Shown here: positions 8,414 through 62,828 of the stretch, piece by piece | Position numbering within the stretch: position 1 is the first letter of the stretch | How the letters are laid out: every line of letters starts with the position of its first letter | Source of the DNA: Patescibacteria group bacterium | GTDB taxonomy: Bacteria; Patescibacteriota; Minisyncoccia; Phycocordibacterales; UBA918 | Length of the DNA: 64,000 bases | Direction: 5' to 3' | NCBI GenBank assembly: GCA_019750255.1 | Contig: JAIEOU010000003.1 | Span: 19,350 to 83,349 of the forward strand | The notes under the pieces: model-generated | Seen by the model: only the letters and a program-made list of their open reading frames with translations | Databases searched by the model: none | What the model was told of the DNA's origin: nothing | Made by a program: the position numbers and the translations under genes

Positions 8414-8517
8414 CGTACGCTTGTTTCTGCGACCTGGAGCAACGGAAACATTTGGAGTATAGTAAGTACGCAGCGGAGATTTTAATAAACGAAGGACGTA
8501 ATTTACATAATAACTAT

Positions 8518-9150: not shown

Positions 9151-9232
9151 GAGCAAAAATTTAAAACCGCCGCTATGGTAGGCTTGTCGCGGACTGTTAC
9201 ATCCCTAAAACGCACATGAGAAGGAAGGTGTG

Positions 9233-19483: not shown

Positions 19484-20284
19484 ATGAATGACCGCTTTGT
19501 TCATAAAAAATCGCTAGGACAACACTTTCTTAATAGTCCGGTAATTCCTAGAAAGCTGTGCGACGCAGCCGACCTCATTCCGGGGGAAACGGTTGTAGAA
19601 ATTGGCCCTGGTACCGGTGCGCTCACCGCAGTATTGCTTGAGCGCGGGGTAAAGGTCATCGCTATCGAAACCGACGAAAGGGCTATTCTGCACCTCGAGG
19701 AACGCTTCGCGACAGAAATAATGGCTAAAATGCTAGTCATATCGGCACAAGACGCTCGCGAACTTGATCTCACTCAGTTAGGTCTTCACAATCAGGAGTA
19801 TAAAGTGGTAGCGAATATCCCTTACTACCTCTCGGGGTTTCTCTTTCGGACGTTCTTAGAAAACACGCTTCAGCCCTCAACTCTGGTTTTTTTGGTACAG
19901 AAAGAGGTGGCGGAGCGCATTGCTCGCGCTAAAAAAGCCTCGCTCCTATCTCTGTCGGTAGCCGTGTTTGGTAACCCTACATATATATGTACTGTAAAGC
20001 GGGGCAACTTCACCCCGGCTCCCAAAGTGGACTCGGCTATTATCGCCGTCCGTGACATTTCACGGGAACGCCTTATGGATATCGACCCTCGCCACTTTTT
20101 TTACTTACTTCACTTAGGCTTCGGGCAAAAACGTAAACAATTGCTTGGCAACCTAACCGCGGCCTATGAACGAACCACCCTCGAGCGTATTTTCAACGAG
20201 CAGAAATTGAATCTCAACATAAGGGCAGAGGACTTGTCTGTACCGCAGTGGGTTACTCTAGTCCACGCCTTACCACCACAATAA
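19484..20284 (+). CDS. rsmA: 16S rRNA (adenine1518/1519-N6)-dimethyltransferase
   Basis: MNDRFVHKKSLGQHFL... with the SAM-binding motif VVEIGPGTGALT, typical of KsgA. Confidence 0.85.
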   Translation: MNDRFVHKKSLGQHFLNSPVIPRKLCDAADLIPGETVVEIGPGTGALTAVLLERGVKVIAIETDERAILHLEERFATEIMAKMLVISAQDARELDLTQLGLHNQEYKVVANIPYYLSGFLFRTFLENTLQPSTLVFLVQKEVAERIARAKKASLLSLSVAVFGNPTYICTVKRGNFTPAPKVDSAIIAVRDISRERLMDIDPRHFFYLLHLGFGQKRKQLLGNLTAAYERTTLERIFNEQKLNLNIRAEDLSVPQWVTLVHALPPQ

Positions 20285-20397
20285 GCACCTCTTTATCCTC
20301 AGTTATTGCCCTATGTACACTAAGTTCTCCCCAGCTTAATCACATCTTGTTCGGTGTTCGTACACGGGAAGGGCTTCGACACTGCTATACTTTACGT

Positions 20398-21294
20398 ATG
20401 TTAGGTGGCATTAATCCCCGAGTGCTCGGATCGAGCTTTATTGGCTTAGCGCTCGTGTGTGGTGCTTGGGTTCTCAATTCCTTGCGGACGGCTCCCACCA
20501 CACCCCCCGAAGCCGCGGTGTACCTCGTTCAGGAAAATGCTCCAGTTCGGAACGCTCTTTCAACAGAAGACCAGAACACTGACGGCATCGAGGACTGGAA
20601 GGAGCCGTTCCTGACTGCTGCGCCAGTTATCTTAAACACCAGTTCCAGCTCAAATGAGCGAACAGGCACCCTCACCGAACAGGTAGGGATTAACCTCATG
20701 GAAAGCATGCTGATGGCGGAGAGCTTTGGTGCGGCCGGTGCGTCAAATGAGCAGCTCATCAAAAATTCGACCGAGCAGGCTTTTCTTGCAAATCGGGACC
20801 GCATCTATACCAGTAGCGACATCACGGTACTAACAAACCCTGAATTAGCGTCCATCCGCGACTACGCGAATGCGGTTGCTTTGATTCTCTCTACGAATGA
20901 TGTAAAGGGCTCAAAAAACGAGCTGCTTCTTTTTGACGAAGCGGTGCGCACTGGTAACCAGCAACTATTTGCTCAGATTACCCGCAAGGCAGACATGTAT
21001 AAGATCTATCGTGACGAGCTCCTCAAACTGCCCGTTCCACTAACCTTAACCCAGGAACACTTACGTCTTATTAATGTTTTTAATGTCATGGAGGCCAATA
21101 TCAGATCTATGACTGAACTTGACACCGACCCGCTAAAGACGCTCGTCCGACTGGAAAACTACCAAGATGACACCACCGAACTCGGTTTGGCATTGAATTA
21201 TTTTTATACTGGAATTTCTAAATTCCCTGACCTCTTCTCACCAAACGATCCAGCTCTTGCCTTTACCACCTTTGGTCAGTTGCAACAACAATAA
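20398..21294 (+). CDS. Hypothetical N-terminally membrane-anchored protein, first gene of the T4SS-like operon
   Basis: Internal Met followed by TM helix SSFIGLALVCGAWVL. An extended -10 tgctatact lies 6 nt upstream (leaderless). Confidence 0.4.
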   Translation: MLGGINPRVLGSSFIGLALVCGAWVLNSLRTAPTTPPEAAVYLVQENAPVRNALSTEDQNTDGIEDWKEPFLTAAPVILNTSSSSNERTGTLTEQVGINLMESMLMAESFGAAGASNEQLIKNSTEQAFLANRDRIYTSSDITVLTNPELASIRDYANAVALILSTNDVKGSKNELLLFDEAVRTGNQQLFAQITRKADMYKIYRDELLKLPVPLTLTQEHLRLINVFNVMEANIRSMTELDTDPLKTLVRLENYQDDTTELGLALNYFYTGISKFPDLFSPNDPALAFTTFGQLQQQ

Positions 21295-25282: not shown

Positions 25283-25816
25283 ATGAACCCAACTATTGCT
25301 GACGAACGCCTCTATCAAATCACCGACCCTGCCTATCGCGACTACATTTTAAGTGGCGACACGACTGACCTGGCTATTATTCTTGGCTCGACCCATAACT
25401 TAGACGAGCAGGCAGTGGGAGTACTTGAGAATGCGATTGATCTTTATCTTTTATGGCTCCTCGACGCCACCGGCCTGGCGACATTTATTAGTCGTCAATG
25501 CGACCTCTCATTAGATGATGCCGCGGTACTGGTTGCCGCTATAGACCTTGCCCTACCTGAAGACGTTCTCCAAGCACACGCACACCCAGAGGCGATGTTA
25601 CAGGCAGCTCCGTCACCAACTATTGCCACCGAAATTGCCGCCACCGAAGCCGCACTTGCGCACATCTCAACCGTGCGCACGATGGCGCGCGACATGGAGG
25701 ACCTAAAGAGCCAAGCACCGCAGGATAATGCTATCTATAAATCATCTCAAGATACCATTCGGCCCGACAGCACACAGGCCGACACCTCTCGGTGGGGTAG
25801 TGGTGCTCAAAAGTAA
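25283..25816 (+). CDS. Hypothetical acidic protein
   Basis: ORF in the operon with no recognisable motif. Confidence 0.35.
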   Translation: MNPTIADERLYQITDPAYRDYILSGDTTDLAIILGSTHNLDEQAVGVLENAIDLYLLWLLDATGLATFISRQCDLSLDDAAVLVAAIDLALPEDVLQAHAHPEAMLQAAPSPTIATEIAATEAALAHISTVRTMARDMEDLKSQAPQDNAIYKSSQDTIRPDSTQADTSRWGSGAQK

Positions 25817-26312: not shown

Positions 26313-26948
26313 ATGCCCAAAGCCACTCCAGCCAGCCAAGAATTCGTTAGTATTCGCGACATCCGCGAGGGTGTTGTGATGTTAAAAGGGGGACAGACGT
26401 GCAGCGTTCTACTGGCTTCTTCCATAAATTTTGCCTTAAAGTCACAAGACGAACAGCGTGCAATCTTGCTCCAGTTCCAAAACTTTCTCAACACGTTAGA
26501 TTTTTCAATTCAAATCTATGTACAATCTCGCCGCATGAACATCGAGCCCTACCTAGAGCTCTTACGAACACGAGAGGGGGATCAGGACAATGACCTGATG
26601 CGCGTACAGCTACGGGAATACATGGAGTTCGTCCGTACTTTTACCACCGAAGTCGACGTCATGACCAAAAGCTTCTTTGTTATAGTGCCTTACACACCAG
26701 CGCCACTTAATCTTTCAAAAAACCTGGGGTCATTCTTGGCGCAAGGCAAGTCAGCCCCCGCAACGACAGAGACGCGCTTCGAAGAACAGCGTGTTGCGCT
26801 TGAGCAGCGCATTGCGATTGTGAAGCAAGGACTCGATCGTATCGGCGTTCGCACGATTGCCCTTGGCAATGACGAGCTCGTTGAATTTTATTACCACATA
26901 TACAACCCCGGTGATCCTACCTCAAGCGCGCCCTCAGCCGACGTCTAA
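26313..26948 (+). CDS. VirB4/TrbE/CagE-family ATPase, N-terminal domain (separated from the ATPase domain by an in-frame TAA)
   Basis: IRDIREGVVMLKGGQTCSVLLASSINFALKSQDEQRAILLQFQNFLNTLDFSIQIYVQS matches the CagE_TrbE_VirB N-terminal pattern. It is in the same frame as 26958..28754. Confidence 0.55.
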   Translation: MPKATPASQEFVSIRDIREGVVMLKGGQTCSVLLASSINFALKSQDEQRAILLQFQNFLNTLDFSIQIYVQSRRMNIEPYLELLRTREGDQDNDLMRVQLREYMEFVRTFTTEVDVMTKSFFVIVPYTPAPLNLSKNLGSFLAQGKSAPATTETRFEEQRVALEQRIAIVKQGLDRIGVRTIALGNDELVEFYYHIYNPGDPTSSAPSADV

Positions 26949-28768: not shown

Positions 28769-29518
28769 ATGGCTGATCGCCGCCTGCAAGCCTCCCTAGA
28801 CCGCGCCCGCACTGGTCGACAGACCACAGACGAGCTTTTTAATGATGAATATGCTCGATCTGGTCTACAACCAACCAATGTGGTCGTCGATCGTAGATCG
28901 CCCCGCGCTCCTAATCGAACAGAGTCAGAAAAGTTAGACGAGGAGAAGGCTCTACAGGAGATGGCGGCGTTCGAACGAGCAGAGAAGACTCAACAATTGC
29001 GCCAACGATTTACTCAGCAGCCAACACAAACCAACGTCGGCCAGGCAGAGGAGGCAATCGACACCGCCGTAGCGTTACGTAGCCGAAGTGTTTTTGTATG
29101 GATGATGGGTTGGCACTGGTGGCAGTGGACCACCCTTCAATTATCAATCGGACTACTTTCGATTATGTTTCTCGGATTAGCGTACGGTCTTGAGAGTAGC
29201 TGGCTCGGAAGGGTCGTGGGTCGAGTGGCTGGTGCAGTTAATGCTGTCACTTCGTTTGTCGGGTTTGATTTTTCCCTGTTTAGCCCCGAAAATATGTTCT
29301 GGGTGCTCTATATATTCCTTCTGGGCATGATGTGGCTCAGTCTGTTCGCTACAGTAGTTACTTATATGTGTGTCCAGCATCGAGCCTTATCGGGGAAGAG
29401 AACTGGTCTAAAGTATGGCACGGTAGCCCTCGCGCTTATCGGGTACGCAGTACCAATTGCTAACTTATTTCCCTGGGTTGTGTTCTATATTTTGGTCATG
29501 ACTCGCTACCCACGGTAG
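28769..29518 (+). CDS. Hypothetical membrane protein (basic cytoplasmic N-terminus, about 4 TM)
   Basis: Hydrophobic helices from about aa 110 onward. Lies in the operon. Confidence 0.4.
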   Translation: MADRRLQASLDRARTGRQTTDELFNDEYARSGLQPTNVVVDRRSPRAPNRTESEKLDEEKALQEMAAFERAEKTQQLRQRFTQQPTQTNVGQAEEAIDTAVALRSRSVFVWMMGWHWWQWTTLQLSIGLLSIMFLGLAYGLESSWLGRVVGRVAGAVNAVTSFVGFDFSLFSPENMFWVLYIFLLGMMWLSLFATVVTYMCVQHRALSGKRTGLKYGTVALALIGYAVPIANLFPWVVFYILVMTRYPR

Positions 29519-29583: not shown

Positions 29584-30552
29584 ATGATTGATGGTATGAA
29601 GATTGTTGCTTTGGTTTTATTTTTCTTAAGTTTTTTCACCGCCCCGGTGGCATATGCTCAAGTTTCTGCAACCCCTTTCCTTAACCAGCTACAAATTGTT
29701 ACCGACCCACTATATCCCTCTCCACAGAGTGAGATAGGGGTAAATCTCAATGACTACGGATTAGCTGGCGCCGGCGGGACTATTGAATGGGTGGTCGACG
29801 GGGTTCGTCGTAGTGATTTGCACAATAAAAGATCTTTTACGATAACAACTGGCGCTACAGGCGTGCCGATGGTACTTGAAGCCATGATTACCCCCGCAAA
29901 CGGACCGCGCATGACCGCTCGCAACACTATTTCTCCGACCTATCTTGATCTAATTATCGAAGCCCAGACTCGTGTGCCGGGTTTTTATCTCGGTCGGGCT
30001 CTCCCTAGTATCGGTAGCGCCGTTAATGTGACCGCCCTCATAAATGGTACAGCTGTTTCACCGCGCGATTTACTATTTAGATGGCAAATGAACGAAACCG
30101 CCCTCCTCGGTGGACCTGTACAAGGACAGAACCAAGTTACCTTTACCATGCCACAAGGGGGAGCTACTCTAGGAGTCGTAGTAGAGAGGGTAGGTGGTGG
30201 TGTGATTGCGAGCAAAAATATATTTCTCCAGAATGCAGAACAGACGGTTCGTTTTTATGAGGTAAATAGTCTCTACGGGATGGCTAAGCGGTCGGCAGAG
30301 CGCCTATCTCTCATTGGTAACAGCACTACCGTAAGGGCGGAGCCGTTTCATCTCGATATCCGTACCTACAACAACCCCGACATCGCCACCTGGTCAAGCT
30401 CCGCAATTACTCTTTCTCAAGGCACAAACCCATATGAAGCGACCATCGTCCGGCAAGCTGGTTTAACTGGAGTTGGGGCGGTCGGTTTCCATGTACGCAA
30501 CGAAAATCAAATCCTACAAGGTAGCCAAGCAAGCCTCCAGGTGAGCTACTAA
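29584..30552 (+). CDS. Hypothetical secreted protein
   Basis: Signal peptide MIDGMKIVALVLFFLSFFTAPVAYAQ. Confidence 0.4.
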   Translation: MIDGMKIVALVLFFLSFFTAPVAYAQVSATPFLNQLQIVTDPLYPSPQSEIGVNLNDYGLAGAGGTIEWVVDGVRRSDLHNKRSFTITTGATGVPMVLEAMITPANGPRMTARNTISPTYLDLIIEAQTRVPGFYLGRALPSIGSAVNVTALINGTAVSPRDLLFRWQMNETALLGGPVQGQNQVTFTMPQGGATLGVVVERVGGGVIASKNIFLQNAEQTVRFYEVNSLYGMAKRSAERLSLIGNSTTVRAEPFHLDIRTYNNPDIATWSSSAITLSQGTNPYEATIVRQAGLTGVGAVGFHVRNENQILQGSQASLQVSY

Positions 30553-30556
30553 ACTT

Positions 30557-31753
30557 ATGAAAAAAACTTTTATTATCGCTGGCGCTGTCATTCTCGTACT
30601 CATGCTCGCGGGACTATGGATCTACATGATGTTTTTTGGTACACCACGGACGGTTGAGGAAGTTCTTCCCGACTTCGCGCTCTGGGGGGAGGATGGGATG
30701 CCGGTACAAATACCGGTGATAGCCCCCACCACTACCGCTCCTCTACCGATGGTAAATGTCAATGAAAAAGCTTTACGCCAACTGACGACACGGCCAGTGG
30801 CCGGCTACCGCGAAGTACTGAAGAGCGCTTCGTCCACTCCCGAGCTCTACTACGCTGAGGTGGGTACCGGTCACATCTACAGCATCAACCTCGAGACCGG
30901 TGCCGAGGTGCGCGTATCTGGCACCACCATTCCTGAGGCGGTACGCGCGGATTTTAGCAGTGACGGACGACATGTTGTGATTGCTTCTGGGTTTAGCCAG
31001 GGACACACCGCCACTATCGGGGAATTAGACGCAAGCACGGGAGCGCTTACTGAAGTACCGTTTACCGACACCTTAGGGGACTTCAGGATTACTGAGGGCG
31101 GGGACTTACTGTACACTCACCCCTCTAACACCCTGACAGGTAAAACATTCTCTCTTTCTAACCGAACCACCCGTACACTATTTACTCTACCGTTCCGTGA
31201 CGCCACCATATCTTGGGGCGAACGCGTTACCGACACCCATTTTGTTTACCCTCGTCCCACGATGGAACTAGAAGGGTTTGGCTATGCCATAAACAATGGC
31301 GGACTGACACGCCTGCCATTGTCTGGTTTTGGTTTTTCACTGTTCGGCAATGAGAGCTTGGTTGGTGCGAACTTTCTTGATAAGAACGATTTCGTATCTG
31401 TGTTCTATAACCGCTCGACCCGGAACCTTATTTCATCACCGGTCCGTCTCCTGCCAGAAAAGTGCACATTTGGAACTAAAAATAAAACCATAGTATGGTG
31501 TGGTGCTAGTTTACAAGCCACCGGCTTCGGCTTCCCTGACACCTGGTATACCGGGGAAGTGGGCTTCAGTGATGACATTTATGAAATTTCGCTTACATCG
31601 ACATCTAGTTCGCTGACACTAATTACAGATACTTTAATTGAAACCGGACGTGAAGTAGATATTGTTGACCTTCGCGTAAATCCGACTGAAACGCAACTGT
31701 ACTTTATTAACAAAAACGATTCATCACTCTGGGCCTATGATCTCTCGCGCTAG
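30557..31753 (+). CDS. Hypothetical bitopic membrane protein with beta-rich extracytoplasmic domain
   Basis: N-terminal TM helix IIAGAVILVLMLAGLWIYMMFF, followed by repeated beta-strand-like segments. Confidence 0.4.
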   Translation: MKKTFIIAGAVILVLMLAGLWIYMMFFGTPRTVEEVLPDFALWGEDGMPVQIPVIAPTTTAPLPMVNVNEKALRQLTTRPVAGYREVLKSASSTPELYYAEVGTGHIYSINLETGAEVRVSGTTIPEAVRADFSSDGRHVVIASGFSQGHTATIGELDASTGALTEVPFTDTLGDFRITEGGDLLYTHPSNTLTGKTFSLSNRTTRTLFTLPFRDATISWGERVTDTHFVYPRPTMELEGFGYAINNGGLTRLPLSGFGFSLFGNESLVGANFLDKNDFVSVFYNRSTRNLISSPVRLLPEKCTFGTKNKTIVWCGASLQATGFGFPDTWYTGEVGFSDDIYEISLTSTSSSLTLITDTLIETGREVDIVDLRVNPTETQLYFINKNDSSLWAYDLSR

Positions 31754-32486
31754 TTTCTTCTTAATTCCTTCTGCGCTTTTTATTGTCTTGTTGGTGACTC
31801 CTTTTTTGGGACTTGCTCAGTCCTTGACGTATCAGCCACTAGTGGGGATTCCCGGCATTAACAACACGGCCACTGACTTTAATCTTTATATAAATCAACT
31901 CTACTTCCTATCTATCAGCCTAGCCGCGCTTTTAGCGGTAATTAAAATTATTATTGGCGGAGTAAAGTGGATGCTATCCGACGGCCCTTCGGGTAAGTCT
32001 GGCGCAAAGGATGATATTCGTAGCGCTCTCCTTGGATTACTCCTCATTGTGTCGGCTGTTCTTATCCTTGGAACGATTAACCCCCAACTGCGTGACCTCA
32101 ACGTACTTGGTGGGGCACCAGCACTAAATCCGCTACCAAGCGCTGGGTCGCGATCAGTAGCCAATCCTACAAATCAGGCAGTTACTACTGAGCAGCAGAA
32201 TCTTTCTCAGAGTCCTGATAATCAGCAAGCGGTGGAGCAGGCCCTTGGTGTTAATCGCAATCAAGTTCAAACCGGAACCGATCGGGCTGGCTCTAACACT
32301 TTTTCTTACATAGTCGCAGATGCACCTCGAGAGGTAAAGAATGGTTTCATAAATGCCTGCATGAATGTGACGCAGGGCGGTGTAGGTACGACCAACACCA
32401 TCCGCACCGAATCGTTTAACGGGTTACAAATAATGTCTTGCTATCGCCAGGGCCCAAACAATACCCAATATCGAATCCAACTATAG
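31737..32486 (+). CDS. Pilin-like (VirB2/TrbC-like) protein with Gln-rich C-terminal extension
   Basis: Signal peptide, then two hydrophobic helices separated by a short loop (LYFLSISLAALLAVIKIIIGGVKW...ALLGLLLIVSAVLILGTI). Overlaps the upstream gene by 17 nt. Confidence 0.35.
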   Translation: MISRASFFLIPSALFIVLLVTPFLGLAQSLTYQPLVGIPGINNTATDFNLYINQLYFLSISLAALLAVIKIIIGGVKWMLSDGPSGKSGAKDDIRSALLGLLLIVSAVLILGTINPQLRDLNVLGGAPALNPLPSAGSRSVANPTNQAVTTEQQNLSQSPDNQQAVEQALGVNRNQVQTGTDRAGSNTFSYIVADAPREVKNGFINACMNVTQGGVGTTNTIRTESFNGLQIMSCYRQGPNNTQYRIQL

Positions 32487-33284: not shown

Positions 33285-33617
33285 CTACCGCTCTTTCAGG
33301 TAGCGTGAAAGGACCACATCGACGCTCGCATGCTGTTCAAGACGGGGAATACGCGCGAGTGGGGGCTTGGCTACCAAAATAACGACCCCTACGAGCCCCC
33401 GCTCCTTACCGAGACGCTCAAGGGCGGCGTAGAGTCGGCGCCGAATAGTGTTGCGTTCATGGGCTTTTTTGGCCACCTTTTTACTTACCACCACCGCACC
33501 CCGCAACCGGGCATGGGGAGTATACACAGCAGTCAACACGTCCGAGTGTTGTCGAGAGCCGCTTTTGAAATACTCGGAAAATTCAGGCCGGGAAAGGCGG
33601 TCTTGTTTAGACAACAT
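33285..33617 (-). CDS. rnpA: Ribonuclease P protein component
   Basis: 110 aa basic protein (SKKVAKKAHERNTIRRRL). Located between rpmH and yidC. Confidence 0.8.
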   Translation of the reverse strand: MLSKQDRLSRPEFSEYFKSGSRQHSDVLTAVYTPHARLRGAVVVSKKVAKKAHERNTIRRRLYAALERLGKERGLVGVVILVAKPPLARIPRLEQHASVDVVLSRYLKER

Positions 33618-33737
33618 AGGTCGAGGTCAGTATACAAGGATATATAATGAATACATAGTGCGAATGTATTTTCTTTGTATATCTGGTCGTAGCCGCAGGC
33701 TACAAAAAAGGCCCCTAAGGGCCCTTTTTGTTCTTCA

Positions 33738-33899
33738 TTATAACTTCGACTTCACCTTAGACTTCACGGTAAGCTGAGCGCGACCCTTGCGGCGACGGGC
33801 CTTAATGACCTTACTGCCGGCAGTGGTAGCACTACGCACGAGAAAACCGTGGGTGGTGGCGCGCTTTTGCTTCTTTGGTTGATAGGTTCGCTTTGACAT
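33738..33899 (-). CDS. rpmH: 50S ribosomal protein L34
   Basis: Manual translation of the minus strand gives [53 protein letters not shown]. This gene is absent from the ORF track, which reports a wrong-frame ORF 33764..33958. Confidence 0.8.
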
Positions 33900-34139
33900 A
33901 CTAGGCTGTGATTAGGTCGCACCACTATACATGAATATAAGAATAATTCAAATACCACCTATGTGGCCGCCCCGAAAGCGCGGTGGTGGGGGAGGTGACG
34001 TTTTCTGTTATACACAACTTATACACAGTTGCGAATTAATACAAAAAAACAGAGTCGCCGCATTTTATAAAATAACAATAAGTTTACAGTTACCCTCGGG
34101 AGCGTATAATGCTCTGTACTTGCCTTTACTTGTGCGTCT
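33900..34139. promoter_or_regulatory. Candidate oriC segment and dnaA promoter region
   Basis: Two tandem TTATACACA sequences at about 33996-34018 (1 mismatch to the DnaA box TTATCCACA) and a TATAAT box at about 34108. Bounded by rpmH and dnaA. Confidence 0.4.
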
Positions 34140-35525
34140 ATGAATCCACTTTCACATCCTTCACCAACCAACAGTATTGTTCGCACTGAACATATTGATG
34201 TGAAGAAATTGTGGGATGACGCCCTCGTCAAAATTGAACTGTCGATTACACCCGCAAATTTTAAAACCTGGTTTCGGGATACCCACATTGTCACGATCGA
34301 AGACAGCACCGTTACCCTCGGTGTTCCGAGCGTGTTTGTACGCGACTGGTTGTCGGATAAATTCCAGTCAATGATCCTCAAAACACTCCGAGACCTTTCA
34401 CCTTTTGTGCGGAGTGTAGAGTATGCCGTCGTTCAGCGTAGCGAACGCAAAAACGAAGGTTCAAAAACCCAAACCGTTAATGCCGCCCTCCCACTTGAGG
34501 ATTACTACATAAACAAAAGCGACAATTTAAACCCCCGGTACTCATTTGATACCTTTGTCGTTGGGCCATACAACGCTCTGGCACATGCTGCGGCAAAAAC
34601 CGTGGCCGACCGGCCTGGTATCGCCTATAATCCACTCTTCATATATGGTAAGACTGGTCACGGTAAGACTCATCTCATCCAAGCGGTGGGGAACCATATC
34701 AAAAAGACCGGAAAGAAAGTATTTTATGTGACAAGTGAACGCTTTGCGGTTGATTACTTTAACTCTCTTCAAAGCGGTTCCGCCAATAGCTTTAAGGATA
34801 AATACCGTCAATATGACGTTCTTATCATGGACGATGTGCAGTTCTTAGCAACTAAGGAAAAGACTCAGGAGGAGCTCTTCCATCTTTTTAACACCCTCCA
34901 CGACACCAATAAGCAAATTGTCTTCTCGAGCGATCAGCACCCAGCCCTACTCTCCGGTCTAGAAGAGCGGCTTAAGTCACGCTTTGTGCAGGGAATGATT
35001 GTTGATATTCCCACACCCGACCCGGAGTCACGCGTGGCTATTTTGCGCGCCAAGGCTGCTCAGAACAGCATTACTCTGTCTGATGACGTAGTTGAACACC
35101 TTGCTCACACTATTGAAGGCAATATTCGCGAACTTGAAGGGGCCTTAAATACGATTATGTGTCAGTCACAGCTCCTGGGGCGCATGGTATCGCTCGACGA
35201 GGTGAAGGCCATCATCAAGAACAATTCACGCCCACGCAAAACCCTAGCTATCACTGATGTGGTTGATAAAGTAGCTCGTTACTTTGATATTGATCAGGCC
35301 AGCATCTACGAAAAAACGCGTCGAAAGGAGGTGGTTCGGCCGCGCCAAATTATTATGTACATTTTGCGTGAAGATTTTCAGGTGTCATATCCCGCAATTG
35401 GGAAGAAACTAGGCGGTCGCGACCACACGACGGTAATCCACTCTTGCGAGAAGATAAAGGGGGAACTAAAAGAGAACCCTGACCTCGAAGAGGAAATATC
35501 CCAGATTCGATTACTTTTAAAATAA
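34140..35525 (+). CDS. dnaA: Chromosomal replication initiator protein DnaA
   Basis: AAA+ Walker A GKTGHGKTHL, DnaA box-binding C-terminal domain. 461 aa. Confidence 0.95.
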   Translation: MNPLSHPSPTNSIVRTEHIDVKKLWDDALVKIELSITPANFKTWFRDTHIVTIEDSTVTLGVPSVFVRDWLSDKFQSMILKTLRDLSPFVRSVEYAVVQRSERKNEGSKTQTVNAALPLEDYYINKSDNLNPRYSFDTFVVGPYNALAHAAAKTVADRPGIAYNPLFIYGKTGHGKTHLIQAVGNHIKKTGKKVFYVTSERFAVDYFNSLQSGSANSFKDKYRQYDVLIMDDVQFLATKEKTQEELFHLFNTLHDTNKQIVFSSDQHPALLSGLEERLKSRFVQGMIVDIPTPDPESRVAILRAKAAQNSITLSDDVVEHLAHTIEGNIRELEGALNTIMCQSQLLGRMVSLDEVKAIIKNNSRPRKTLAITDVVDKVARYFDIDQASIYEKTRRKEVVRPRQIIMYILREDFQVSYPAIGKKLGGRDHTTVIHSCEKIKGELKENPDLEEEISQIRLLLK

Positions 35526-35819
35526 CGCTTCCTTCTGGTAGCGTTATTTTATACCCAAACCCTGGGGATAAACGCCACATAAATCCTTTAATAGCTCTGT
35601 AGAAGTCTCCTAATTACTCAAAAAAATGCCTCTCTTCTGCCTTAGTTTTCCCCAGACGATAGCCAACAAAATATTTCTCCCCAGACACAAAAACACAATC
35701 ACCAGCTCCACCAACACTATACACAAGAATGCTCACTCATTTGCGCCTTAAAGTACAACATATAATCGAGATATGCACACTTCCACAGCCCTAATAATAG
35801 AGAGTAAAATACTTTTAAA
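35526..35819. promoter_or_regulatory. AT-rich dnaA-dnaN intergenic region with DnaA-box-like motifs (candidate DUE/oriC part)
   Basis: ctggggataaac and ctatacacaag approximate DnaA boxes. The region is low-GC. Confidence 0.3.
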
Positions 35820-36914
35820 ATGAAAATAACTACTCCTTATCCCACTCTTGTTCAAGCGCTCGATATCATTAGTCGGATTAGCACCAAACATGTTACGTTG
35901 CCGGTACTTCAGTGTGTCCTTATAAGTGTAGTTGATAAAAAGATTACCCTCAGAGCTACTAATCTTGAGATTAGTGTTGAGCTTACCCTTGATGGCGTGG
36001 TCGAAGACGATGGGATAATTGCCGTGCCGGCCCAGACACTACAGCAGAGTGTCCAGTTTTTAAATGAAAAGGATGTCACCTTGCGAGTGGAGGAAGGTGT
36101 GCTTGTTATTGAAGGGGCGCACACGCAGACCTCAATTAAATCAATTCCCCATGATGAGTTTCCAAATATCCATAAAATCGACACTGCGGGGGTAGTAGTG
36201 AATGCTGAAATGTTTGCGTATGGAATTAAAACCGTAGCGTTTGCGGCTTCACAGACCTCAATTAAACCAGAGCTCGGAAGTGTGTTTGTTCAACAGAAGC
36301 GCGAACATTCTCTTACGTTCGTTGCGACTGATTCATTTCGATTGATGGAAAAATCAGTTCCTCAAAAAGGGGTGGTACTGGCTCAGTCGTTCTTGTTGCC
36401 GCAGAAGAACGCTCTTGAGTTAGCACGTGTATGCGAAATTGTTGGTGGTACACCAACGTTAATCATTAACGAAAACCAGTGTAGTCTCGTTTTTGCTTCT
36501 GGGGTGTATATAAGCTCGCGTTTGGTTACTGGATCGTTTCCTGATTATGAACAAATCATACCGAAAGAATATGTGACCACCGTGACTATTCTTAAAGAAG
36601 ATCTGCAACGCGCGTTTAAGAAAACTAATATATTTCTTAATAAGTTTTTGCAGGTAGCTATTACACTTACTGAGAGACACCTCACGGTTTCAGCTACTAA
36701 CAGCGAGGTGGGTCACACTACCGATACGCTAAAGGCTCAGGTGGAGGGGCAAGAACTTAATCTTAGTTTCAATCAGCAGTACGTCATTGACCCGCTCTCC
36801 CATATTCAAGATGAGAGTCTGATTCTAAAGTTTGCTGGTATCGGTCGGCCACTCGTACTCCATGGCGTTACTGATCCAAGTTTGCGTTATCTAGTAATGC
36901 CGATGAATAAATAA
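35820..36914 (+). CDS. dnaN: DNA polymerase III beta sliding clamp
   Basis: 364 aa with three-domain beta-clamp pattern, immediately downstream of dnaA. Confidence 0.9.
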   Translation: MKITTPYPTLVQALDIISRISTKHVTLPVLQCVLISVVDKKITLRATNLEISVELTLDGVVEDDGIIAVPAQTLQQSVQFLNEKDVTLRVEEGVLVIEGAHTQTSIKSIPHDEFPNIHKIDTAGVVVNAEMFAYGIKTVAFAASQTSIKPELGSVFVQQKREHSLTFVATDSFRLMEKSVPQKGVVLAQSFLLPQKNALELARVCEIVGGTPTLIINENQCSLVFASGVYISSRLVTGSFPDYEQIIPKEYVTTVTILKEDLQRAFKKTNIFLNKFLQVAITLTERHLTVSATNSEVGHTTDTLKAQVEGQELNLSFNQQYVIDPLSHIQDESLILKFAGIGRPLVLHGVTDPSLRYLVMPMNK

Positions 36915-36917
36915 AGT

Positions 36918-37205
36918 ATGAAGCCGCGGCGAGGAGAGTTGGTAAAGGTGGGGAGTTTATTTGAGAAATATGCAAAGACGCTAAGGCCGCCCCAGCGTTC
37001 AGTAGAGAAGATGGCTTGTGAGGCCATACATGCGATTGTAGGCTGCGAACTAGCCGATGAGCAGGTTTCGTACACTGTAGCCACGAGAACGCTGTATATC
37101 AAAGCCCCGGCCCTTTTGCGGAGTGAGATTAAGCTACACAGTACTGAGATTTTGTCGGTACTGCGAGATCGCTTACCAAAGGAGCCACCACAAGTGTTGT
37201 TATAA
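36918..37205 (+). CDS. DUF721/DciA-like small protein downstream of dnaN
   Basis: 95 aa (VATRTLYIKAPALLRSEIKLHSTEIL). DUF721 is conserved next to dnaN. Confidence 0.4.
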   Translation: MKPRRGELVKVGSLFEKYAKTLRPPQRSVEKMACEAIHAIVGCELADEQVSYTVATRTLYIKAPALLRSEIKLHSTEILSVLRDRLPKEPPQVLL

Positions 37206-43518: not shown

Positions 43519-43662
43519 GTTCCAGACGATAACTCTCTAAGCAACGCGAGTGCGTTGCGAGGGGTCGGTGGCGCTCACTACGAGTGAGAGTGCGACCTAC
43601 TTTCTTAGCGCGGCATTCACTTTCAATGCGGAAGTTTTGCTTAGAGAGTTATATTCTGGAAC
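43519..43662. repeat. About 144-bp element bounded by 26-bp near-perfect inverted repeats (MITE-like, or a structured ncRNA)
   Basis: gttccagacgataactctctaagcaa ... ttgcttagagagttatattctggaac (24 of 26 complementary), enclosing about 90 nt of GC-rich hairpin-forming sequence. Confidence 0.35.
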
Positions 43663-50089: not shown

Positions 50090-50500
50090 GTCGTCACGAG
50101 TCACTAAATATAATTGTTCGCTACGCTCCAAGTCTATTAAGTGCTCGCAGTTTGGCAGGAATCGACACGAGTTTCAAAGTTCGCTACGCTCTCTAAGAAC
50201 TCGTCGTCACGGCTCACCTGTTTCCTGCTCTGGGAAAGGAGCAGAAAACATGGCTCCGCTGTTCGATTAGAGCACGCACCTGCCGCAGGGCAGGTGCTCG
50301 AGCGGACTGTCCACACGAATCACTAAGTATATTTTACGCTTCGCTTAAATCTACTAAGTGTTCGCGACCCCGCCTCGCGGTTGCTGGCCCTGAGAAGGGG
50401 CCAGCAACATCGCTGCGGCTCGGACAAGCGCCGCACCTGCCATTGGGCAGGTGCTAAGAAAACAACCACACCAAATTTGGTGTGGTTGTTTTCTTGCGCT
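50090..50500. repeat. Repeat-rich tRNA-flanking region (family A 65-bp repeats, partial tRNA-Lys 3'-end copies, paired hairpins)
   Basis: cgaatcactaagtatattttacgcttcgcttaaatctactaagtgttcgcgacc (50306-50368) recurs at 54915-54975. A diverged copy lies at 50101-50155. gcacctgcc..ggcaggtgc hairpins occur twice. Confidence 0.5.
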
Positions 50501-50502
50501 TG

Positions 50503-50575
50503 TCCGCTCGGTTGGAATCGAACCAACGACCGTCTCCTTAAAAGGGAGCTGCTCTACCGACTGAGCTACGAGCGG
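50503..50575 (-). tRNA. tRNA-Lys (anticodon UUU)
   Basis: Manual fold: acceptor CCGCTCG/CGAGCGG, D-arm GCTCAGTCGGTAGAGC, anticodon loop CTTTTAA, T-arm GTTGGTTCGATTCCAAC. No encoded CCA. Confidence 0.7.
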
Positions 50576-54889: not shown

Positions 54890-55440
54890 TTAAAATGGAT
54901 GTGGATTCGGTCACGAATCACTAACTATATTTCATCGCTCCGCTTGAAATCTAGTAAGTGTTCTCGACCCCAGATCACTCGCCTCCGGCATCGCTGCGCT
55001 TTTCGAATCACAACATAAGACGCATTAAATCTGTGGATTCGGTCACTCTCATGGATACTTTGTTTCGCTTAGGCTCACAAATTATCTCATTCGCTCGACC
55101 CCCACTCGAGTCGCCCAACTTTCGCTTCGCTTCAGTCGGGTCCCCGCCGCTTCGGTTCGAATCCCACATCCCCGCGCTCGCACAAACAAAAAGAACCCTG
55201 CCGGGTTCTTTTTGGTGCTCGCGGAGGATGTGGGATTCGAAACTTACAGTTTCAGTACACCTTGTCACTATTTTGTTTCCTCTCCTCACAAAATAGTTGG
55301 CAAGGTCTTCGAATCCTTGCAACGCTTTTCTTTCAGAAAAGCTGCAACACATCCTTCTTGCCTCACTTCGTTCGTCTGCGGAGGATGTGGGATGACGTTC
55401 GGCTAGTGATAATAGGTCAGGGAGACTACTAAATTACGAA
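54890..55440. repeat. Repeat-rich region holding family A and family B repeat copies, two inverted tRNA-Ser 3'-end copies forming a palindrome (55148-55245), and a third partial copy at 55375
   Basis: ggattcggtcac...attcgctcgacccc (55031-55100) is similar to 57354-57425. gcggaggatgtgggattcgaa (55220-55240) is identical to the 3' end of tRNA-Ser at 57083-57105. Confidence 0.55.
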
Positions 55441-55444
55441 ATGA

Positions 55445-56308
55445 TTACGGATTACACCACTGACACTCTCCAGGTTCAGCCGAGTTTTTATTTTCTATGG
55501 GTTGGGTTTCTTGATAACTACATTTTTTACAACAACGTACTGTTTCTTTTACCAAATCGGTGGCTAACCCACAGCCATTACAAGGCAATCCCTTAACTAC
55601 ATCAGTAATAACAAAACCAGGAGTAGTGCATTTTGGGCATATACTTTTGCAGTTTTTTATGAGGTCAAGGGTAGCTTGCTTGATACCGTCCATTCGCTTT
55701 GGGCAACGGTGGGCTCGCATATCTGTTTCGATAAAAACAGACTTGGTGCTCCATTTTAATAAAAGCTTTTCAGACATTGTCCGCAAGTCGTCCTCTGTAG
55801 TAATTTCCTTGTAGATGTGTCTACTGCTCGTTTCTGACTGCCTCAAAATAACTCCTTGTTTTGGAAAACCCCACGAGCAAGCGACATCCACAGCTTCTTC
55901 GGGAGTATGTACAATTTGACTTCGAACTTGTGAGTTACTGTTACGGAAATGCCCGACAATTTCCAAATCATTTTTGATATCAATTAACACTACAATTTCA
56001 AGGTTACTTTGGACAAAAGGAATTGTAGGATGATTGCCGAAGCTGCCTTCGCTAGAAAACCCTAAATCCATCCCTGTTAGCATCATTGCTGCTTGAGCTT
56101 TTTTTCGAGCAGCTTCAAGTTGATTACCCGCCCGCTTTATATCTCTTGTAAACGTACCAAAGCGGTCAGTATTAAAATCGTGAGGAACTGTAATGGTAAT
56201 ACCGAGTCCCTCTTTTAATATAGGGGAAATAACACTTTCCTTATTATGCATTGTAGCCAGAACACCCGTTCTTTTTTCCCAATCCCCAATAATGTCCGTT
56301 GATGGCAT
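55445..56308 (-). CDS. Hypothetical protein with C-terminal Cys-rich (multi-CxxC) region, carried on the islet
   Basis: 287 aa. The C-terminal 80 aa contain CPKRM, CKSICPKC, CNGC, CCKKC and CQWC. AT-rich codon usage. Confidence 0.45.
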   Translation of the reverse strand: MPSTDIIGDWEKRTGVLATMHNKESVISPILKEGLGITITVPHDFNTDRFGTFTRDIKRAGNQLEAARKKAQAAMMLTGMDLGFSSEGSFGNHPTIPFVQSNLEIVVLIDIKNDLEIVGHFRNSNSQVRSQIVHTPEEAVDVACSWGFPKQGVILRQSETSSRHIYKEITTEDDLRTMSEKLLLKWSTKSVFIETDMRAHRCPKRMDGIKQATLDLIKNCKSICPKCTTPGFVITDVVKGLPCNGCGLATDLVKETVRCCKKCSYQETQPIENKNSAEPGECQWCNP

Positions 56309-56398
56309 TTATTGATTATAATGCTTGATTGCTTTCTGGACACCCTCTATTGTGTCTTATAAAAATATGATGAGCATAGCTACTTATTTGCGATAAAT

Positions 56399-56683
56399 TT
56401 AAAAATCAAACAATTCTCCTAGCATTGACTTATGTTTCTGTGTACCACCTCGGTTGTAATTATTATCATCGTCATCATCACGGTCATATTGCCGGCCATT
56501 CGTAGTATTGCTTTGAGGGTTACGGACTTGTTCTTGAGCTGGTTGTTGGGCACTGGTTTTCTCAATCAACTTATCTAGCTCCCCACGGTCTAACCAAACC
56601 CCACGACACTGCGGACAGTAATCGATTTCAACACCCTGTCGTTCAGATAGTAATAGCTGAGTATTATCATTTGGGCAGTTCAT
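56399..56683 (-). CDS. TFIIB-type zinc-ribbon domain protein with acidic/Gly-Arg tail
   Basis: MNCPNDNTQL...YCPQCRGVWLDRGELDKLIE is the zf-TFIIB-like pattern. The C-terminus is DDDDDNNYNRGG. Confidence 0.55.
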   Translation of the reverse strand: MNCPNDNTQLLLSERQGVEIDYCPQCRGVWLDRGELDKLIEKTSAQQPAQEQVRNPQSNTTNGRQYDRDDDDDNNYNRGGTQKHKSMLGELFDF

Positions 56684-57082
56684 ATTTTTTAAATTAATTT
56701 ACAAGACTAAACCAATAACAGAATTTAAAATTGATTGTATCAAGTCTAAAATCATAATTATAATTGCTTCTATTTGGTCAAAAATTGATGCGATTTGTTC
56801 CATACTTTATGCATTGATAATAACATGACAGATTTAAAAATAATAATTCTGTAAATTTACCCTTGAAATTACTCTAACTGCAATTTTAATACGCTTCATA
56901 ACAGTATCTATTCCAGCTAGCTTGCTATTGTAGTATTCGTATTTACATTCTGAGTTCCCACTCTAGGATTCGGACACGTCTCGCGTGCACTAGACCCTTT
57001 ACAAAGTTTCCGTGTCGCAGACGGGTACGGAAATCTTAAAAATTTTATGGCTTTAAATAAAGCTCTTCGTGCTAGCACGACT

Positions 57083-57172
57083 TGGCGGAGGATGTGGGAT
57101 TCGAACCCACGAGACCTTTTACAGTCTGGCGGTTTAGTAAACCGCTGCTTTCAACCACTCAGCCAATCCTCC
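57083..57172 (-). tRNA. tRNA-Ser-type (long variable arm, encoded CCA) with apparent anticodon ACU
   Basis: Manual fold: acceptor GGAGGAT/ATCCTCC, anticodon stem GCGGT/ACCGC, loop TTACTAA, 18-nt variable arm, T-arm GTGGGTTCGAATCCCAC, and 3' GCCA. Confidence 0.6.
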
Positions 57173-57289: not shown

Positions 57290-57480
57290 ATTCTACTTCG
57301 CTAGCGCTTCTTAGGGATTCGGTCCTTACTGGAGCAGTACTCCAATTTATAAAATAAGGATTCGGTCACGCTTATGGATATTTAGTTTCGCTTCGCTCAC
57401 AAAATAGCATTCGCTCGAACCCGCAGAGGGACTCTCTCCTTACAGGAGCAGTACCCCAATTGGCTCGTTTATTTCGCTAG
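57290..57480. repeat. Family B dispersed repeat copies between the two tRNA-Ser genes
   Basis: ggattcggtcacgcttatggatatttagtttcgcttcgctcacaaaatagcattcgctcgaaccc matches 55031-55100. A partial copy lies at 57310. Confidence 0.5.
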
Positions 57481-57594
57481 CTCATAAACGAGCTCAATCG
57501 GGCTTCGGATCCCTCCCGTGAGTGACTTTGAGTCACTCACTTCTCTCCGCGAACAAAAATGGCACCCAAGGGAGGGTGCTAATTTTTGTATTCG

Positions 57595-57681
57595 CGGAGA
57601 GAGAGGGATTCGAACCCTCGAAGAGCTTACACCCTTAACAGTTTTCAAGACTGCCGCCTTCAACCACTCAGCCATCTCTCC
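57595..57681 (-). tRNA. tRNA-Ser (anticodon UGA)
   Basis: Manual fold: acceptor GGAGAGA/TCTCTCC, anticodon stem GCAGT/ACTGT, loop CTTGAAA, long variable arm, T-arm GAGGGTTCGAATCCCTC. Confidence 0.7.
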
Positions 57682-58299: not shown

Positions 58300-58372
58300 G
58301 CTCCCATAGTTTAATGGATAGAATGCAGGTTTGCGGTATCTGCGATCCAGGTTCGATTCCTGGTGGGAGCAC
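58300..58372 (+). tRNA. tRNA-Arg-like with apparent anticodon GCG
   Basis: Manual fold: acceptor GCTCCCA/TGGGAGC, anticodon stem CAGGT/ATCTG, loop TTGCGGT, T-arm CCAGGTTCGATTCCTGG. Highly similar to the tRNA-Arg(UCU) at 62374. Confidence 0.6.
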
Positions 58373-58615
58373 AAATCAGCCGACCCAAATGCGAATGCAT
58401 TTGGGTCGTTGCTGTTTGTAGCTCCCACCAGGAATCGAAAGACGCAAGCCGGGGACCCTTTGGGCCGGCGCGTCGGGGTCGAGAGTGCTTAGATTTTTAT
58501 GAGCAAAGCGAAATAAAAAGCTTAGTAACTCGTGACCGAATTTCCTCGTGGGTGTTACGTTATGTTGCTTGCATGTTCTAGCTCCATAACCTACCTATGT
58601 GCTATTCTTCCCGTC

Positions 58616-62120: not shown

Positions 62121-62373
62121 TTATCTCCACGAGGAGTGTCGACCCTTACAAGGTCGGCTGTGCGAGCAAGTGTGGCGCAGGTTACTAAGTGTCCTCACTA
62201 GCGTTGCTAGCTGCGAGCACTAAGTACCTGCTGCCCCAGCTCGACTATTTTTCTCGCTAGTAAGGGCGAGAAAAATAAGTCTGCGCTTCACTCCCGAGCA
62301 CGGAAGCAAAGCAGTTTGCTTCCTAAACAAAAGACACCCTTCTCCCGAAGGGTGTCTTTTGTTTACTCGTGTG

Positions 62374-62445
62374 TGCCTCCACCAGGAATCGAACCTAGAA
62401 TAACGGCTTAGAAGTCCGCAGTTATATCCATTTAACTATGGAGGC
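62374..62445 (-). tRNA. tRNA-Arg (anticodon UCU)
   Basis: Manual fold: acceptor GCCTCCA/TGGAGGC, anticodon loop CTTCTAA, T-arm CTAGGTTCGATTCCTGG. Hairpin terminators lie downstream. Confidence 0.65.
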
Positions 62446-62755
62446 GTAAGTGAAGCATAGCAAAAAGTAGTGATAAAGAGAAAGGGTGATGAGGGCCTTG
62501 TCTCGGGGTCACAAATTCGCATGCGCTCATAAGTGCCCGTGGACGCAGCTCGCGGCTAAGCACGCTTTGAAGGCGTGCTTAGCAACGCTCCGCTGTTGAC
62601 CAATGTTCAAGGAGCAAAGCGACTATGAAAATGTAAGGTGAATTGCGAAGCAAGAGAAGATGTCCTGGGGTAGAAATACTCTTGTGGTGCATGTCCCTCA
62701 TCGCTCCAGAAAACGCAACGACGCCGACACTCGCGTGTCGGCGTCGACGTTTCTG

Positions 62756-62828
62756 TGGGCGATGAGGGACTTGAACCCCCGACCTTTTCAGTGTAAATGA
62801 ATTGCTCTACCAGCTGAGCTAATCGCCC
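62756..62828 (-). tRNA. tRNA-Val (anticodon UAC)
   Basis: Manual fold: acceptor GGGCGAT/ATCGCCC, D-arm GCTCAGCTGGTAGAGC, anticodon loop TTTACAC, T-arm GGGGGTTCAAGTCCCTC. Confidence 0.7.

Follow-up and report, generated by a model that had tools for sequence, protein, structure and literature searches.

The trailers of several tRNA genes in a 64,000-nucleotide (nt) stretch of contig JAIEOU010000003.1 from a Patescibacteria group bacterium (the window) contain an inverted copy of that tRNA's 3' terminus, placed beyond one or two hairpins. Trailer folding and flank searches identified this inverted copy as one element of modular arrays, which also hold a terminator-like hairpin, a conserved module and a displaced direct copy of the same tRNA segment. 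With about even odds, the inverted copy belongs, at the level of DNA, to small, non-autonomous hairpin cassettes which enter tRNA genes at the T-loop and accumulate there. The cassette arrays span many tRNA species in a whole group of ultra-small bacteria of the candidate phyla radiation (CPR), and they look like a new kind of tRNA-targeted insertion. An earlier note on this DNA had offered several possible roles for the inverted copy, namely a processing signal, an anti-maturation structure, a terminator or the footprint that site-specific recombination leaves at tRNA ends. The last of these is the best supported, on the evidence of displaced direct copies, T-loop-bounded insertions, accretion and cargo.

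Inverted copies follow tRNA 3' ends specifically

The window was compared with the regions around PilM in 47 related genomes (PilM relatives 55-64% identical to the window PilM), which gave 142 tRNAs in total; for each tRNA, its last 26 nt were reverse-complemented and aligned to the trailers. The 3' end scored at least 20 against its own trailer in 50 of the 142 tRNAs and at least 24 in 34, whereas against the trailer of another tRNA species these scores were obtained for 3 and 1 of 142, respectively. The 5' end aligned with its own leader reached 20 in 7 of the 142 tRNAs and 24 in none. The inverted-copy rule recurs in the related genomes beyond what chance would give; a chance restriction to the first four loci had been named in the earlier note as grounds for refuting it. 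The distal copy follows each genome's own tRNA sequence, and in very many cases its end coincides exactly with the complement of T54, the first base of the T-loop.

Exact copies of at least 12 nt showed the same one-sidedness. Within 600 nt downstream of 140 tRNAs from the window and the 47 genomes, 50 direct and 37 inverted copies were found, compared with 4 direct and 0 inverted copies upstream. The corresponding numbers for 92 tRNAs from metagenome loci were 45 and 29 downstream, and 1 and 0 upstream. The starts of the copies cluster at T54 +/- 2. The two kinds of copy also occur together, the direct copy being present in 44 of 54 tRNAs with an inverted copy (81%) and in 11 of 87 without one (141 tRNAs).

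Perfect-stem hairpins of the same genomes were surveyed, those within 25 nt of a tRNA 3' end being counted as the tRNA class. An extended flank palindrome surrounds 49% of the 57 tRNA-adjacent hairpins compared with 8% of the 285 others, and most of the high scorers among the latter turned out to be displaced tRNA-fragment units. When seven type-A palindromes were aligned, 92% of the cells were paired and 12 pairs had changed on both sides, three of them inside the tRNA-derived part, a result reached by none of 500 shuffles. The palindrome pairing is also kept in displaced units.

Inverted copies at the tRNA genes of the window

Six tRNA genes, predicted with ARAGORN and Rfam, lie at 50.5-62.8 kb of the window, and an inverted copy had been described at four of them. 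All four repeats exist, three of them far beyond chance expectation and that of tRNA-Lys weak. At tRNA-Arg(GCG), 19 nt are exactly complementary (58352-58370 and 58421-58439; score 38), and at 86% complementarity the repeat can be followed over 29 nt around the inner hairpin. At tRNA-Val, the exact stretch is 12 nt (62692-62703 and 62759-62770; score 30), with an extension to 30 nt at 77%. Both copies had been recognised correctly, with positions off by one, in the case of tRNA-Arg(GCG) for the first arm. The arm and counter-arm containing the 3' end of tRNA-Ser(UGA) were confirmed at 57542-57559 and 57585-57602 (18 nt at 89%, score 21), the longest exact stretch being 12 nt. This copy is split, a hairpin separating the acceptor complement from the T-stem and T-loop complement, which had been overlooked, and the trailer fold is a three-way junction.

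For tRNA-Lys, the exact complement of 14-16 nt reported previously was overstated. The exact pairing is 11 nt (50422-50432 and 50496-50506), and the reverse complement of 50419-50432 matches at 12 of 14 positions. Just four of the paired bases (50503-50506) are within the tRNA and the remainder is trailer; the alignment score of the tRNA part, 12, is at the level of shuffles. According to a by-hand estimate, chance would yield about two inverted repeats of 11 nt within 150 nt in every 64 kb, and the Lys case alone is therefore not significant. At each of the loci, the trailer as a whole is a long quasi-palindrome whose centre is the loop of the inner hairpin.

The inverted copy is part of a modular array

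With segment A defined as the tRNA from T54 to the discriminator, and A' as its inverted copy, the typical order at a locus is tRNA(1-53) - A - bidirectional terminator - A' - module M - A - older trailer. The final A is the displaced direct copy of the tRNA segment, and A' is often split by a second hairpin of the dispersed family (G)YAAGCAAC-CTGC-GTTGCTTRCG. Units are mostly 110-170 nt. Module M consists of a long hairpin and a small one, the latter with the loop TGTAA, and has the motif GTACTGA between the two. Its form M1 can be written as AAGGTTGCC - inner stem - GACAACCT - GTACTGA - NNN - TGTAA - N'N'N', in which the small hairpin at the end pairs with the bases that open the following direct copy; M2 and M3 follow this plan with variations. 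M never occurs in the opposite orientation relative to the tRNA.

A metagenome scan with the M1 core yielded at least about 75 genuine modules among the matches listed. A same-strand tRNA is found within 700 nt upstream of 49 of the listed modules, most often at 85-140 nt, and the tRNAs upstream of the listed modules belong to at least 23 anticodon species. Locus L124 contains two identical copies of M, 890 nt apart, beside tRNA-Lys and tRNA-Leu, each with locus-specific flanks.

Position 6 of the M1 outer stem is a conserved non-Watson-Crick position (L069-L188 and L001-L047), with C.A in 59 cases, U-A in 30, U.G in 14 and C-G in 9 on the tRNA-sense strand; on the antisense strand it is a G.U wobble. 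The position could be an extrahelical or strand-marking feature. One terminator family, G(A/C)GTACAAAAAT.AGCACCC...GGGTGC.ATTTTTGTTCG, stands beside many different tRNAs (L003 5481-5530, L036, L039 and L141; window 57556-57594). Its AGTACA is an inverted repeat of the TGTACT that ends module M, so that segment A is flanked by TGTACT ... AGTACA. Some direct copies after M have an extra short insertion directly after the T-loop (L149, L153 and L182), for example TCGATACGCGAAGCGGTCCCC. Modules in tandem lie 93 nt apart in L188 (about 6870-7060), with no recognisable tRNA-derived segment between them, and 185 nt apart in L182 (130-500). In L136 (about 8700-9000, minus strand) and L153 (about 1650-1800), modules lie downstream of an end resembling a T-arm plus acceptor for which ARAGORN called no tRNA; these ends could belong to intron-containing tRNAs, transfer-messenger RNA or decayed genes.

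Units are inserted, replaced and stacked, and some contain genes

Comparison of relatives revealed sites with and without a unit. A block of ~150-165 nt with the order A - terminator - A'(hairpin 2) - M1 is present at L017 and L007 and absent from the window, L019 and L021. It is located between the 5' strand of the T-stem and the second of the two TTCGATTCCTGGCGAGAGCAC copies that bound it. The flanks are homologous on both sides, and the sequence past the second TTCGATTCCTGGCGAGAGCAC has its homologue in the window's own trailer. In another pair, L025 and L047, the sequences are 96-100% identical from upstream of tRNA-Ser through its unit. Homology stops exactly after the inverted T-loop (..GATTCGAAG), is followed by different modules and different small genes, and resumes 0.7-1.1 kb past the break. 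Filled and empty sites with precise boundaries, as known from tRNA-integrated islands, thus exist among relatives.

Accretion is seen in L010, where two units with unlike terminators, second hairpins and modules are arranged in tandem next to no intact tRNA. Cargo was found at several loci. L141 contains a 152-residue open reading frame (ORF) preceded by consensus-like -35/-10 hexamers and flanked by a duplicated block of ~110 nt, L098 encodes a P-loop protein, and L079 a 453-residue protein with a hydrophobic N-terminus that looks signal-peptide-like by eye. Downstream of tRNA-Ser(ACU) in the window lies a 1.84-kb low-GC islet that contains two genes and ends in M1; beyond it, a direct copy, a terminator and an inverted copy make up a complete displaced unit, to which no tRNA is attached. 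The DUF6671 and Zn-ribbon proteins encoded there gave no NCBIfam match, and the DUF6671 protein gave no sequence match in the Protein Data Bank.

Features of the window

The positions of the tRNA genes and array elements are collected in Table 1. In five of the six tRNA genes an encoded CCA is missing. The A34 anticodon of tRNA-Ser(ACU), the one window tRNA with an encoded CCA, is unusual in bacteria, where GCU is expected; its trailer AGTCGTGCTAGCACG is common to the CCA-encoding tRNA-Ser(UGA) genes of L002 and L007.

Table 1. Coordinates of tRNA genes and array elements in the window
Feature	Position	Strand	Evidence or remark
Other M3-type copies	about 50095-50150, 50314-50371, 55035-55100, 57330-57430		
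Lys inverted copy of acceptor 3' end plus trailer	50417-50432	+	both hairpins nested inside
Lys trailer, second hairpin GCACCTGCC-ATTG-GGCAGGTGC	50433-50454	.	second copy at 50276-50297
Lys trailer, terminator-like palindrome, perfect 20+20 nt, A-tract/GC stem/T-tract, both directions	50456-50495	.	inverted-repeat search
tRNA-Lys(UUU)	50503-50575	-	no CCA encoded; ARAGORN, Rfam
M3-type repeat copy ending beside degenerate tRNA-Ser T-loop fragment	54903-54971	-	
Displaced unit, inverted copy	55156-55171	+	16 nt exact versus 55226-55241; no tRNA attached
Displaced unit, terminator-type hairpin	55187-55214	.	inverted-repeat search
Displaced direct copy of tRNA-Ser(ACU) T54-to-3'-end segment	55219-55241	-	22/23
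Module M1 at distal end of islet, ACCTTGCC..GACAAGGT-GTACTGA-AAC-TGTAA-GTT	55242-55306	-	
Low-GC islet between tRNA-Ser(ACU) and M1	55307-57082	-	M1 abuts displaced 3' fragment of that tRNA
Islet, inverted T part	55307-55316		
Islet, hairpin 2	55317-55347		
Islet, partial direct copy	55376-55393		
Islet, DUF6671 gene, 287 aa, Cys-rich C-terminus	55445-56308	-	
Islet, Zn-ribbon gene, TFIIB-type, 94 aa	56399-56683	-	
tRNA-Ser(ACU)	57083-57172	-	CCA encoded; trailer without adjacent inverted copy; ARAGORN, Rfam
Module M2, GCCCGATTGAG-stem-GAGCTAGCGAA-stem-CCAATTGGGG-TACTG-CTCC-TGTAA-GGAG	57433-57503	-	flank search
Ser-UGA inverted T-loop plus T-stem 3' strand (TTCGGATCCCTC, 1 mismatch)	57504-57515	+	sequence
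Ser-UGA hairpin 2, between acceptor part and T part of inverted copy	57518-57540	.	fold
Ser-UGA inverted acceptor 3' strand plus discriminator (TCTCTCCGCGAA)	57541-57553	+	sequence, fold
Ser-UGA trailer terminator hairpin, core 57560-57581, both strands	57556-57590	.	terminator scoring
tRNA-Ser(UGA)	57595-57681	-	ARAGORN, Rfam
tRNA-Arg(GCG)	58300-58371	+	segment A (T54 to discriminator) 58352-58371; ARAGORN, Rfam
Arg-GCG trailer terminator hairpin, both strands	58381-58408	.	terminator scoring
Arg-GCG inverted copy A' (19 nt exact), ending exactly at T54 complement	58420-58439	-	inverted-repeat search
Arg-GCG further hairpin GACGCAAGCCGGGG..CCGGCGCGTC	58442-58475	.	conserved in L019, L021, L017
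Arg-GCG module M3, GGGGTCGAG-stem-GAGCAAAGCGAA-stem-CGTGAC	58476-58536	+	sequence, alignment
Arg-GCG degenerate direct copy of segment A (CGAATTTCCTCGTGGGTG)	58537-58554	+	sequence, alignment
tRNA-Arg(UCU)	62374-62445	-	ARAGORN; trailer with terminator 62324-62365 and hairpin-2-family hairpin 62302-62323, no clear inverted copy
Val degenerate direct copy of segment A (GACAAGGCCCTCATCACCC, 15/17)	62484-62502	-	sequence
Val inverted 3'-end copy (exact core 62692-62703)	62688-62703	+	inverted-repeat search
Val trailer terminator hairpin, both strands	62719-62746	.	terminator scoring
tRNA-Val(UAC)	62756-62828	-	ARAGORN, Rfam

The gene content of the window includes RuvA/B/C, YqgF, PilM/N/O, PilB, a Mur ligase, S20, UppS, DnaA and DnaN. 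Along with the PilM relatives, these genes assign the window to the Kaiserbacteria/Paceibacteria branch within the Patescibacteria. The genes dnaA (34140-35525) and dnaN (35820-36914) coincide with the minimum of the cumulative GC skew at about 34-36 kb, and 33300-37000 is probably the replication origin region. Of the six tRNA genes to the right of dnaA and dnaN, five have the minus-strand orientation, which is head-on to replication. An NYN-domain protein and a T4SS-pilin-like protein are encoded at 8452-9150 and 31737-32486. Seven of 20 window ORFs scanned against Pfam gave no match (9230-10096, 20248-21294, 25283-25816, 26313-26948, 28769-29518, 29584-30552 and 30557-31753). An inverted repeat of 26 nt with 92% complementarity and a 92-nt spacer, between ruvB and pilB (43519-43662), is not tRNA-related.

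Proposed cassette insertion at the T-loop

In the reading that is favoured here, each new unit would enter at the T-loop and bring along a replacement 3' end and a terminator, so that the tRNA gene stays intact, and the old 3' end would be pushed downstream, as with tRNA-integrating islands. The order seen at the loci would result exactly if a circular unit A - terminator - A' - M were opened at the 5' edge of A and entered the gene at G53/T54. The cassette's long hairpin (A - terminator - A') would have the inverted copy as its second arm, and this hairpin, when single-stranded, would rebuild a duplex mimic of the 3' part of the tRNA gene. Template switching could plausibly keep A and A' matched, and the enzyme would act in trans. 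A more far-reaching version, possible yet rather doubtful, is that the units are the integrated form of a cassette system of Patescibacteria that has not been described before and is guided by structure, not by sequence. In such a system, a mini-circle of ~110-170 nt, consisting of the M hairpin, the A:A' stem and the terminator hairpin, would be mobilised by a trans-acting enzyme and use the universal T-loop of any tRNA gene, and the tRNA gene with its inverted fragment would provide an integron-like platform for stockpiling small genes. The mobile form would be rod-like and largely self-complementary, larger when it contains a gene, and would recombine, probably as folded single-stranded DNA.

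One of the closest known parallels is found in genomic islands that split a tRNA gene and restore it, the displaced fragment marking the end of the island (PMC4383910). The T-loop is a recognised crossover subsite of such islands, besides the anticodon loop and the T/acceptor junction (PMC4383910). In accordance with the Islander principle and the sublocations of Williams 2002, the arrays show an intact tRNA, an inserted segment and a displaced direct 3' copy, the latter found downstream of 50 of the 140 tRNAs and upstream of 4. They also share the start of the fragment at the T-loop (T54 +/- 2), tandem accretion and, in some cases, cargo. Unlike the islands, the array units are mostly 110-170 nt and had no integrase that could be found, they also hold an inverted fragment, and one module family serves at least 23 tRNA species.

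Folded single-strand recombination sites are known from integron attC and CTX phage attP (PMC5027507, PMC4792948). The array palindromes resemble these, and it is a resemblance only, in being imperfect, 60-140 nt long and variable in sequence with conserved bulges, and their hairpin could likewise rebuild a duplex target mimic. As in integron cassette arrays, new units appear to enter proximally while older ones shift distally, and some cassettes contain a single small gene. The outer boxes RYYYAAC ... GTTRRRY of attC are, however, not present; the array palindromes have GTTCGA.. as their 5' outer end and ..TCGAAC as the 3' one, which is attC's arrangement turned around. In addition, no IntI or Xer gene was detected near the arrays in a phmmer search of low sensitivity, and the platform is a tRNA gene.

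Several observations weigh against cassette insertion. Canonical integration predicts no inverted copy, and A and A' match the local tRNA in each unit even though one module family serves at least 23 tRNA species. No integrase or transposase was detected by Pfam in 36 window ORFs, the array-side genes being scanned with NCBIfam as well, and no integrase was seen among the cargo ORFs, as far as these were scanned with Pfam or judged by their translated sequences. XerD-like and IS200-TnpA-like probes gave no credible phmmer match in 2770 ORFs from 1.4 Mb of array-bearing loci, a search of low sensitivity. A scan of viral contigs for the 15-nt M1 motif returned 21 chance matches, none with a module, and therefore gives no evidence of a phage attP. 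A free or circular form of a unit was not observed anywhere in the sequences examined. The repeat copies of the window are old, at most 89% identical, so that current activity is unsupported for this genome. Finally, concerted evolution of an ancient host-beneficial element could mimic several of the patterns. An Rfam search with all families in the window and eight related loci returned tRNAs only, and the modules are thus not a known RNA family. No prior description for CPR bacteria was found in the literature.

Alternative explanations

Neutral template switching, in which the terminator hairpin nucleates fold-back replication and the constrained tRNA side is copied onto the free distal side, would create the inverted copy without any insertion. 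Template switching is documented to create and maintain hairpins with reverse-complement arms and multi-base compensatory changes (PMC8794818), and the arms studied here are near-perfect in their Watson-Crick pairing and show such changes. The head-on orientation of five of the six window tRNAs to the dnaA-side origin could moreover favour fork stalling at tRNA 3' ends. The process should nevertheless affect hairpins generally, whereas the extended palindrome is found at 8% of the non-tRNA hairpins of the same genomes, compared with 49% of those beside a tRNA. It cannot make or supply conserved 60-nt modules common to 23 tRNA species or unlike units in tandem, it leaves insertions with foreign terminators and cargo unaccounted for, and the conserved bulges have not been erased. 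Template switching alone is therefore an unlikely explanation; as a contribution to keeping A and A' matched it is likely.

The second alternative places the function of the inverted copy in RNA. By pairing with the T-loop, T-stem and acceptor 3' strand, the copy could slow down or prevent maturation, target read-through transcripts for decay or make a processing site. Sequestration of the acceptor in the primary transcript, as put forward in the earlier note, was weakly supported by co-folding. In read-through RNA the long helix is strongly favoured, with predicted gains of -24.7 (Arg), -13.0 (Val), -12.0 (Ser-UGA) and -5.5 kcal/mol (Lys), whereas transcripts ending at the U-tract form no pairs between tRNA and trailer. 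At these loci the distal arm lies beyond the predicted terminator: the inner hairpins of Arg-GCG, Val and Ser-UGA (57560-57581 in the last case) score as intrinsic terminators on both strands. Like bidirectional intrinsic terminators, the inner hairpins combine an A-tract, a GC stem and a T-tract. A terminator role, also proposed earlier, accordingly fits the inner hairpin, a GC-rich stem followed by a T-run, and does not extend to the inverted copy, which is outside it; the array palindrome runs 20-30 nt further on each side and into the tRNA body, which is unneeded for termination.

An RNA helix would agree with the specificity for tRNAs and with pairing that is kept across species, with double-sided changes and conserved bulges, but such pair-keeping covariation would also be yielded by template switching. 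The arms are nearly pure Watson-Crick duplexes, with 6 G.T and 5 A.C internal mismatches in 735 aligned positions, and G.U makes up 3-5% of the pairs in M stems. A tolerance of G.U limited to the transcribed strand was not seen in the arms (735 positions) or in the M stems, and folding energies of M in sense and antisense showed no clear strand preference (p = 0.08). Units that lack an attached tRNA have kept these palindromes (the displaced units of L017 and L007, L010 and window 55156-55241), the presence of the palindromes is patchy among close relatives, and the third, direct copy and the M modules find no explanation in an RNA helix. These data favour a DNA-level origin of the inverted copies over an RNA maturation signal, and the latter is quite unlikely to be their basis. 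A role of the predicted long helix in read-through RNA is possible.

Repetitive extragenic palindromic sequences and bacterial interspersed mosaic elements (REP/BIME) of enterobacteria consist of extragenic palindromic units that alternate in orientation, are joined by two linker motifs, lie at the 3' ends of transcription units and overlap with terminators. A host-beneficial mosaic of this type could be ancient and vertically inherited, serve as insulator, bidirectional terminator or binding site at tRNA 3' ends, and be homogenised by gene conversion. The arrays, which follow the 3' ends of genes, likewise alternate units and two types of linker, in the order A - terminator - A' - M - A - terminator - A' - M. 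The identical copies of M in L124, with their locus-specific flanks, would fit gene conversion, and the low-sensitivity phmmer screen detected no transposase in cis. An IS200-like probe for a gene of the REP-associated tyrosine transposase (RAYT) type also had no match in the 1.4 Mb of array-bearing loci, with the same low sensitivity. The arrays differ from REP/BIME in that their repeats are derived from the neighbouring tRNA and are particular to each locus, in their displaced direct copies and cargo, and in having GTAC in place of GTAG ahead of the small hairpin. Presence, absence and replacement among relatives at 96-100% identity, cargo genes inside the arrays, the existence of arrays without a tRNA and the lack of an identified benefit argue against a mosaic of this kind, and it appears distinctly improbable.

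Tandem inversion duplication, in which snap-back occurs first at the terminator and then at the T-arm, would produce a direct-inverted-direct triplication of the tRNA 3' end. That triple is the hallmark of the process, and both junction regions are quasi-palindromes. The third copy is, however, followed by the ancestral trailer with a terminator different from that of the first copy, and a conserved module occupies the second junction, which makes this origin very unlikely. Chance or an assembly artefact is a negligible prospect for anything beyond the 11 nt at tRNA-Lys, which taken alone are within expectation, since the pattern recurs with covariation in 47 separately assembled genomes and, across many studies, in over 70 metagenome contigs, at sites that are all contig-internal.

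A number of further candidates were rejected. A retroviral-type primer-binding site does not fit an inverted copy that follows the gene's trailer and not CCA, and a hammerhead or other ribozyme is contradicted by absent core motifs and the lack of an Rfam match. Module M has the wrong spacing for a promoter, and no consistent cloverleaf can be drawn for it as a degenerate tRNA. Its left flank is not a T-stem 5' strand plus T-loop, as the variants AATCGAA, ACTTGAA and AGAGG prove a true reverse complement. Restriction-fragment shuffling at TTCGAA was discarded because tRNAs with TTCAA T-loops behave alike.

Implications

The arrays call for caution in the inference of RNA structure, as strong covariation and large folding energies occur here where a DNA-level explanation fits better. 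Island finders that rely on tRNA fragments, terminator predictors and screens for non-coding RNA will misread such loci unless the architecture is known. If cassette insertion at the T-loop is the correct reading, the arrays would offer a model for integrase-less, possibly structure-guided insertion at this universal loop of tRNA genes. The cassettes would then account for much variable intergenic DNA and for small gene islets such as that at 55.2-57.1 kb of the window, and the tRNA genes of a large uncultured, genome-reduced lineage would be docking platforms for tiny hairpin cassettes.

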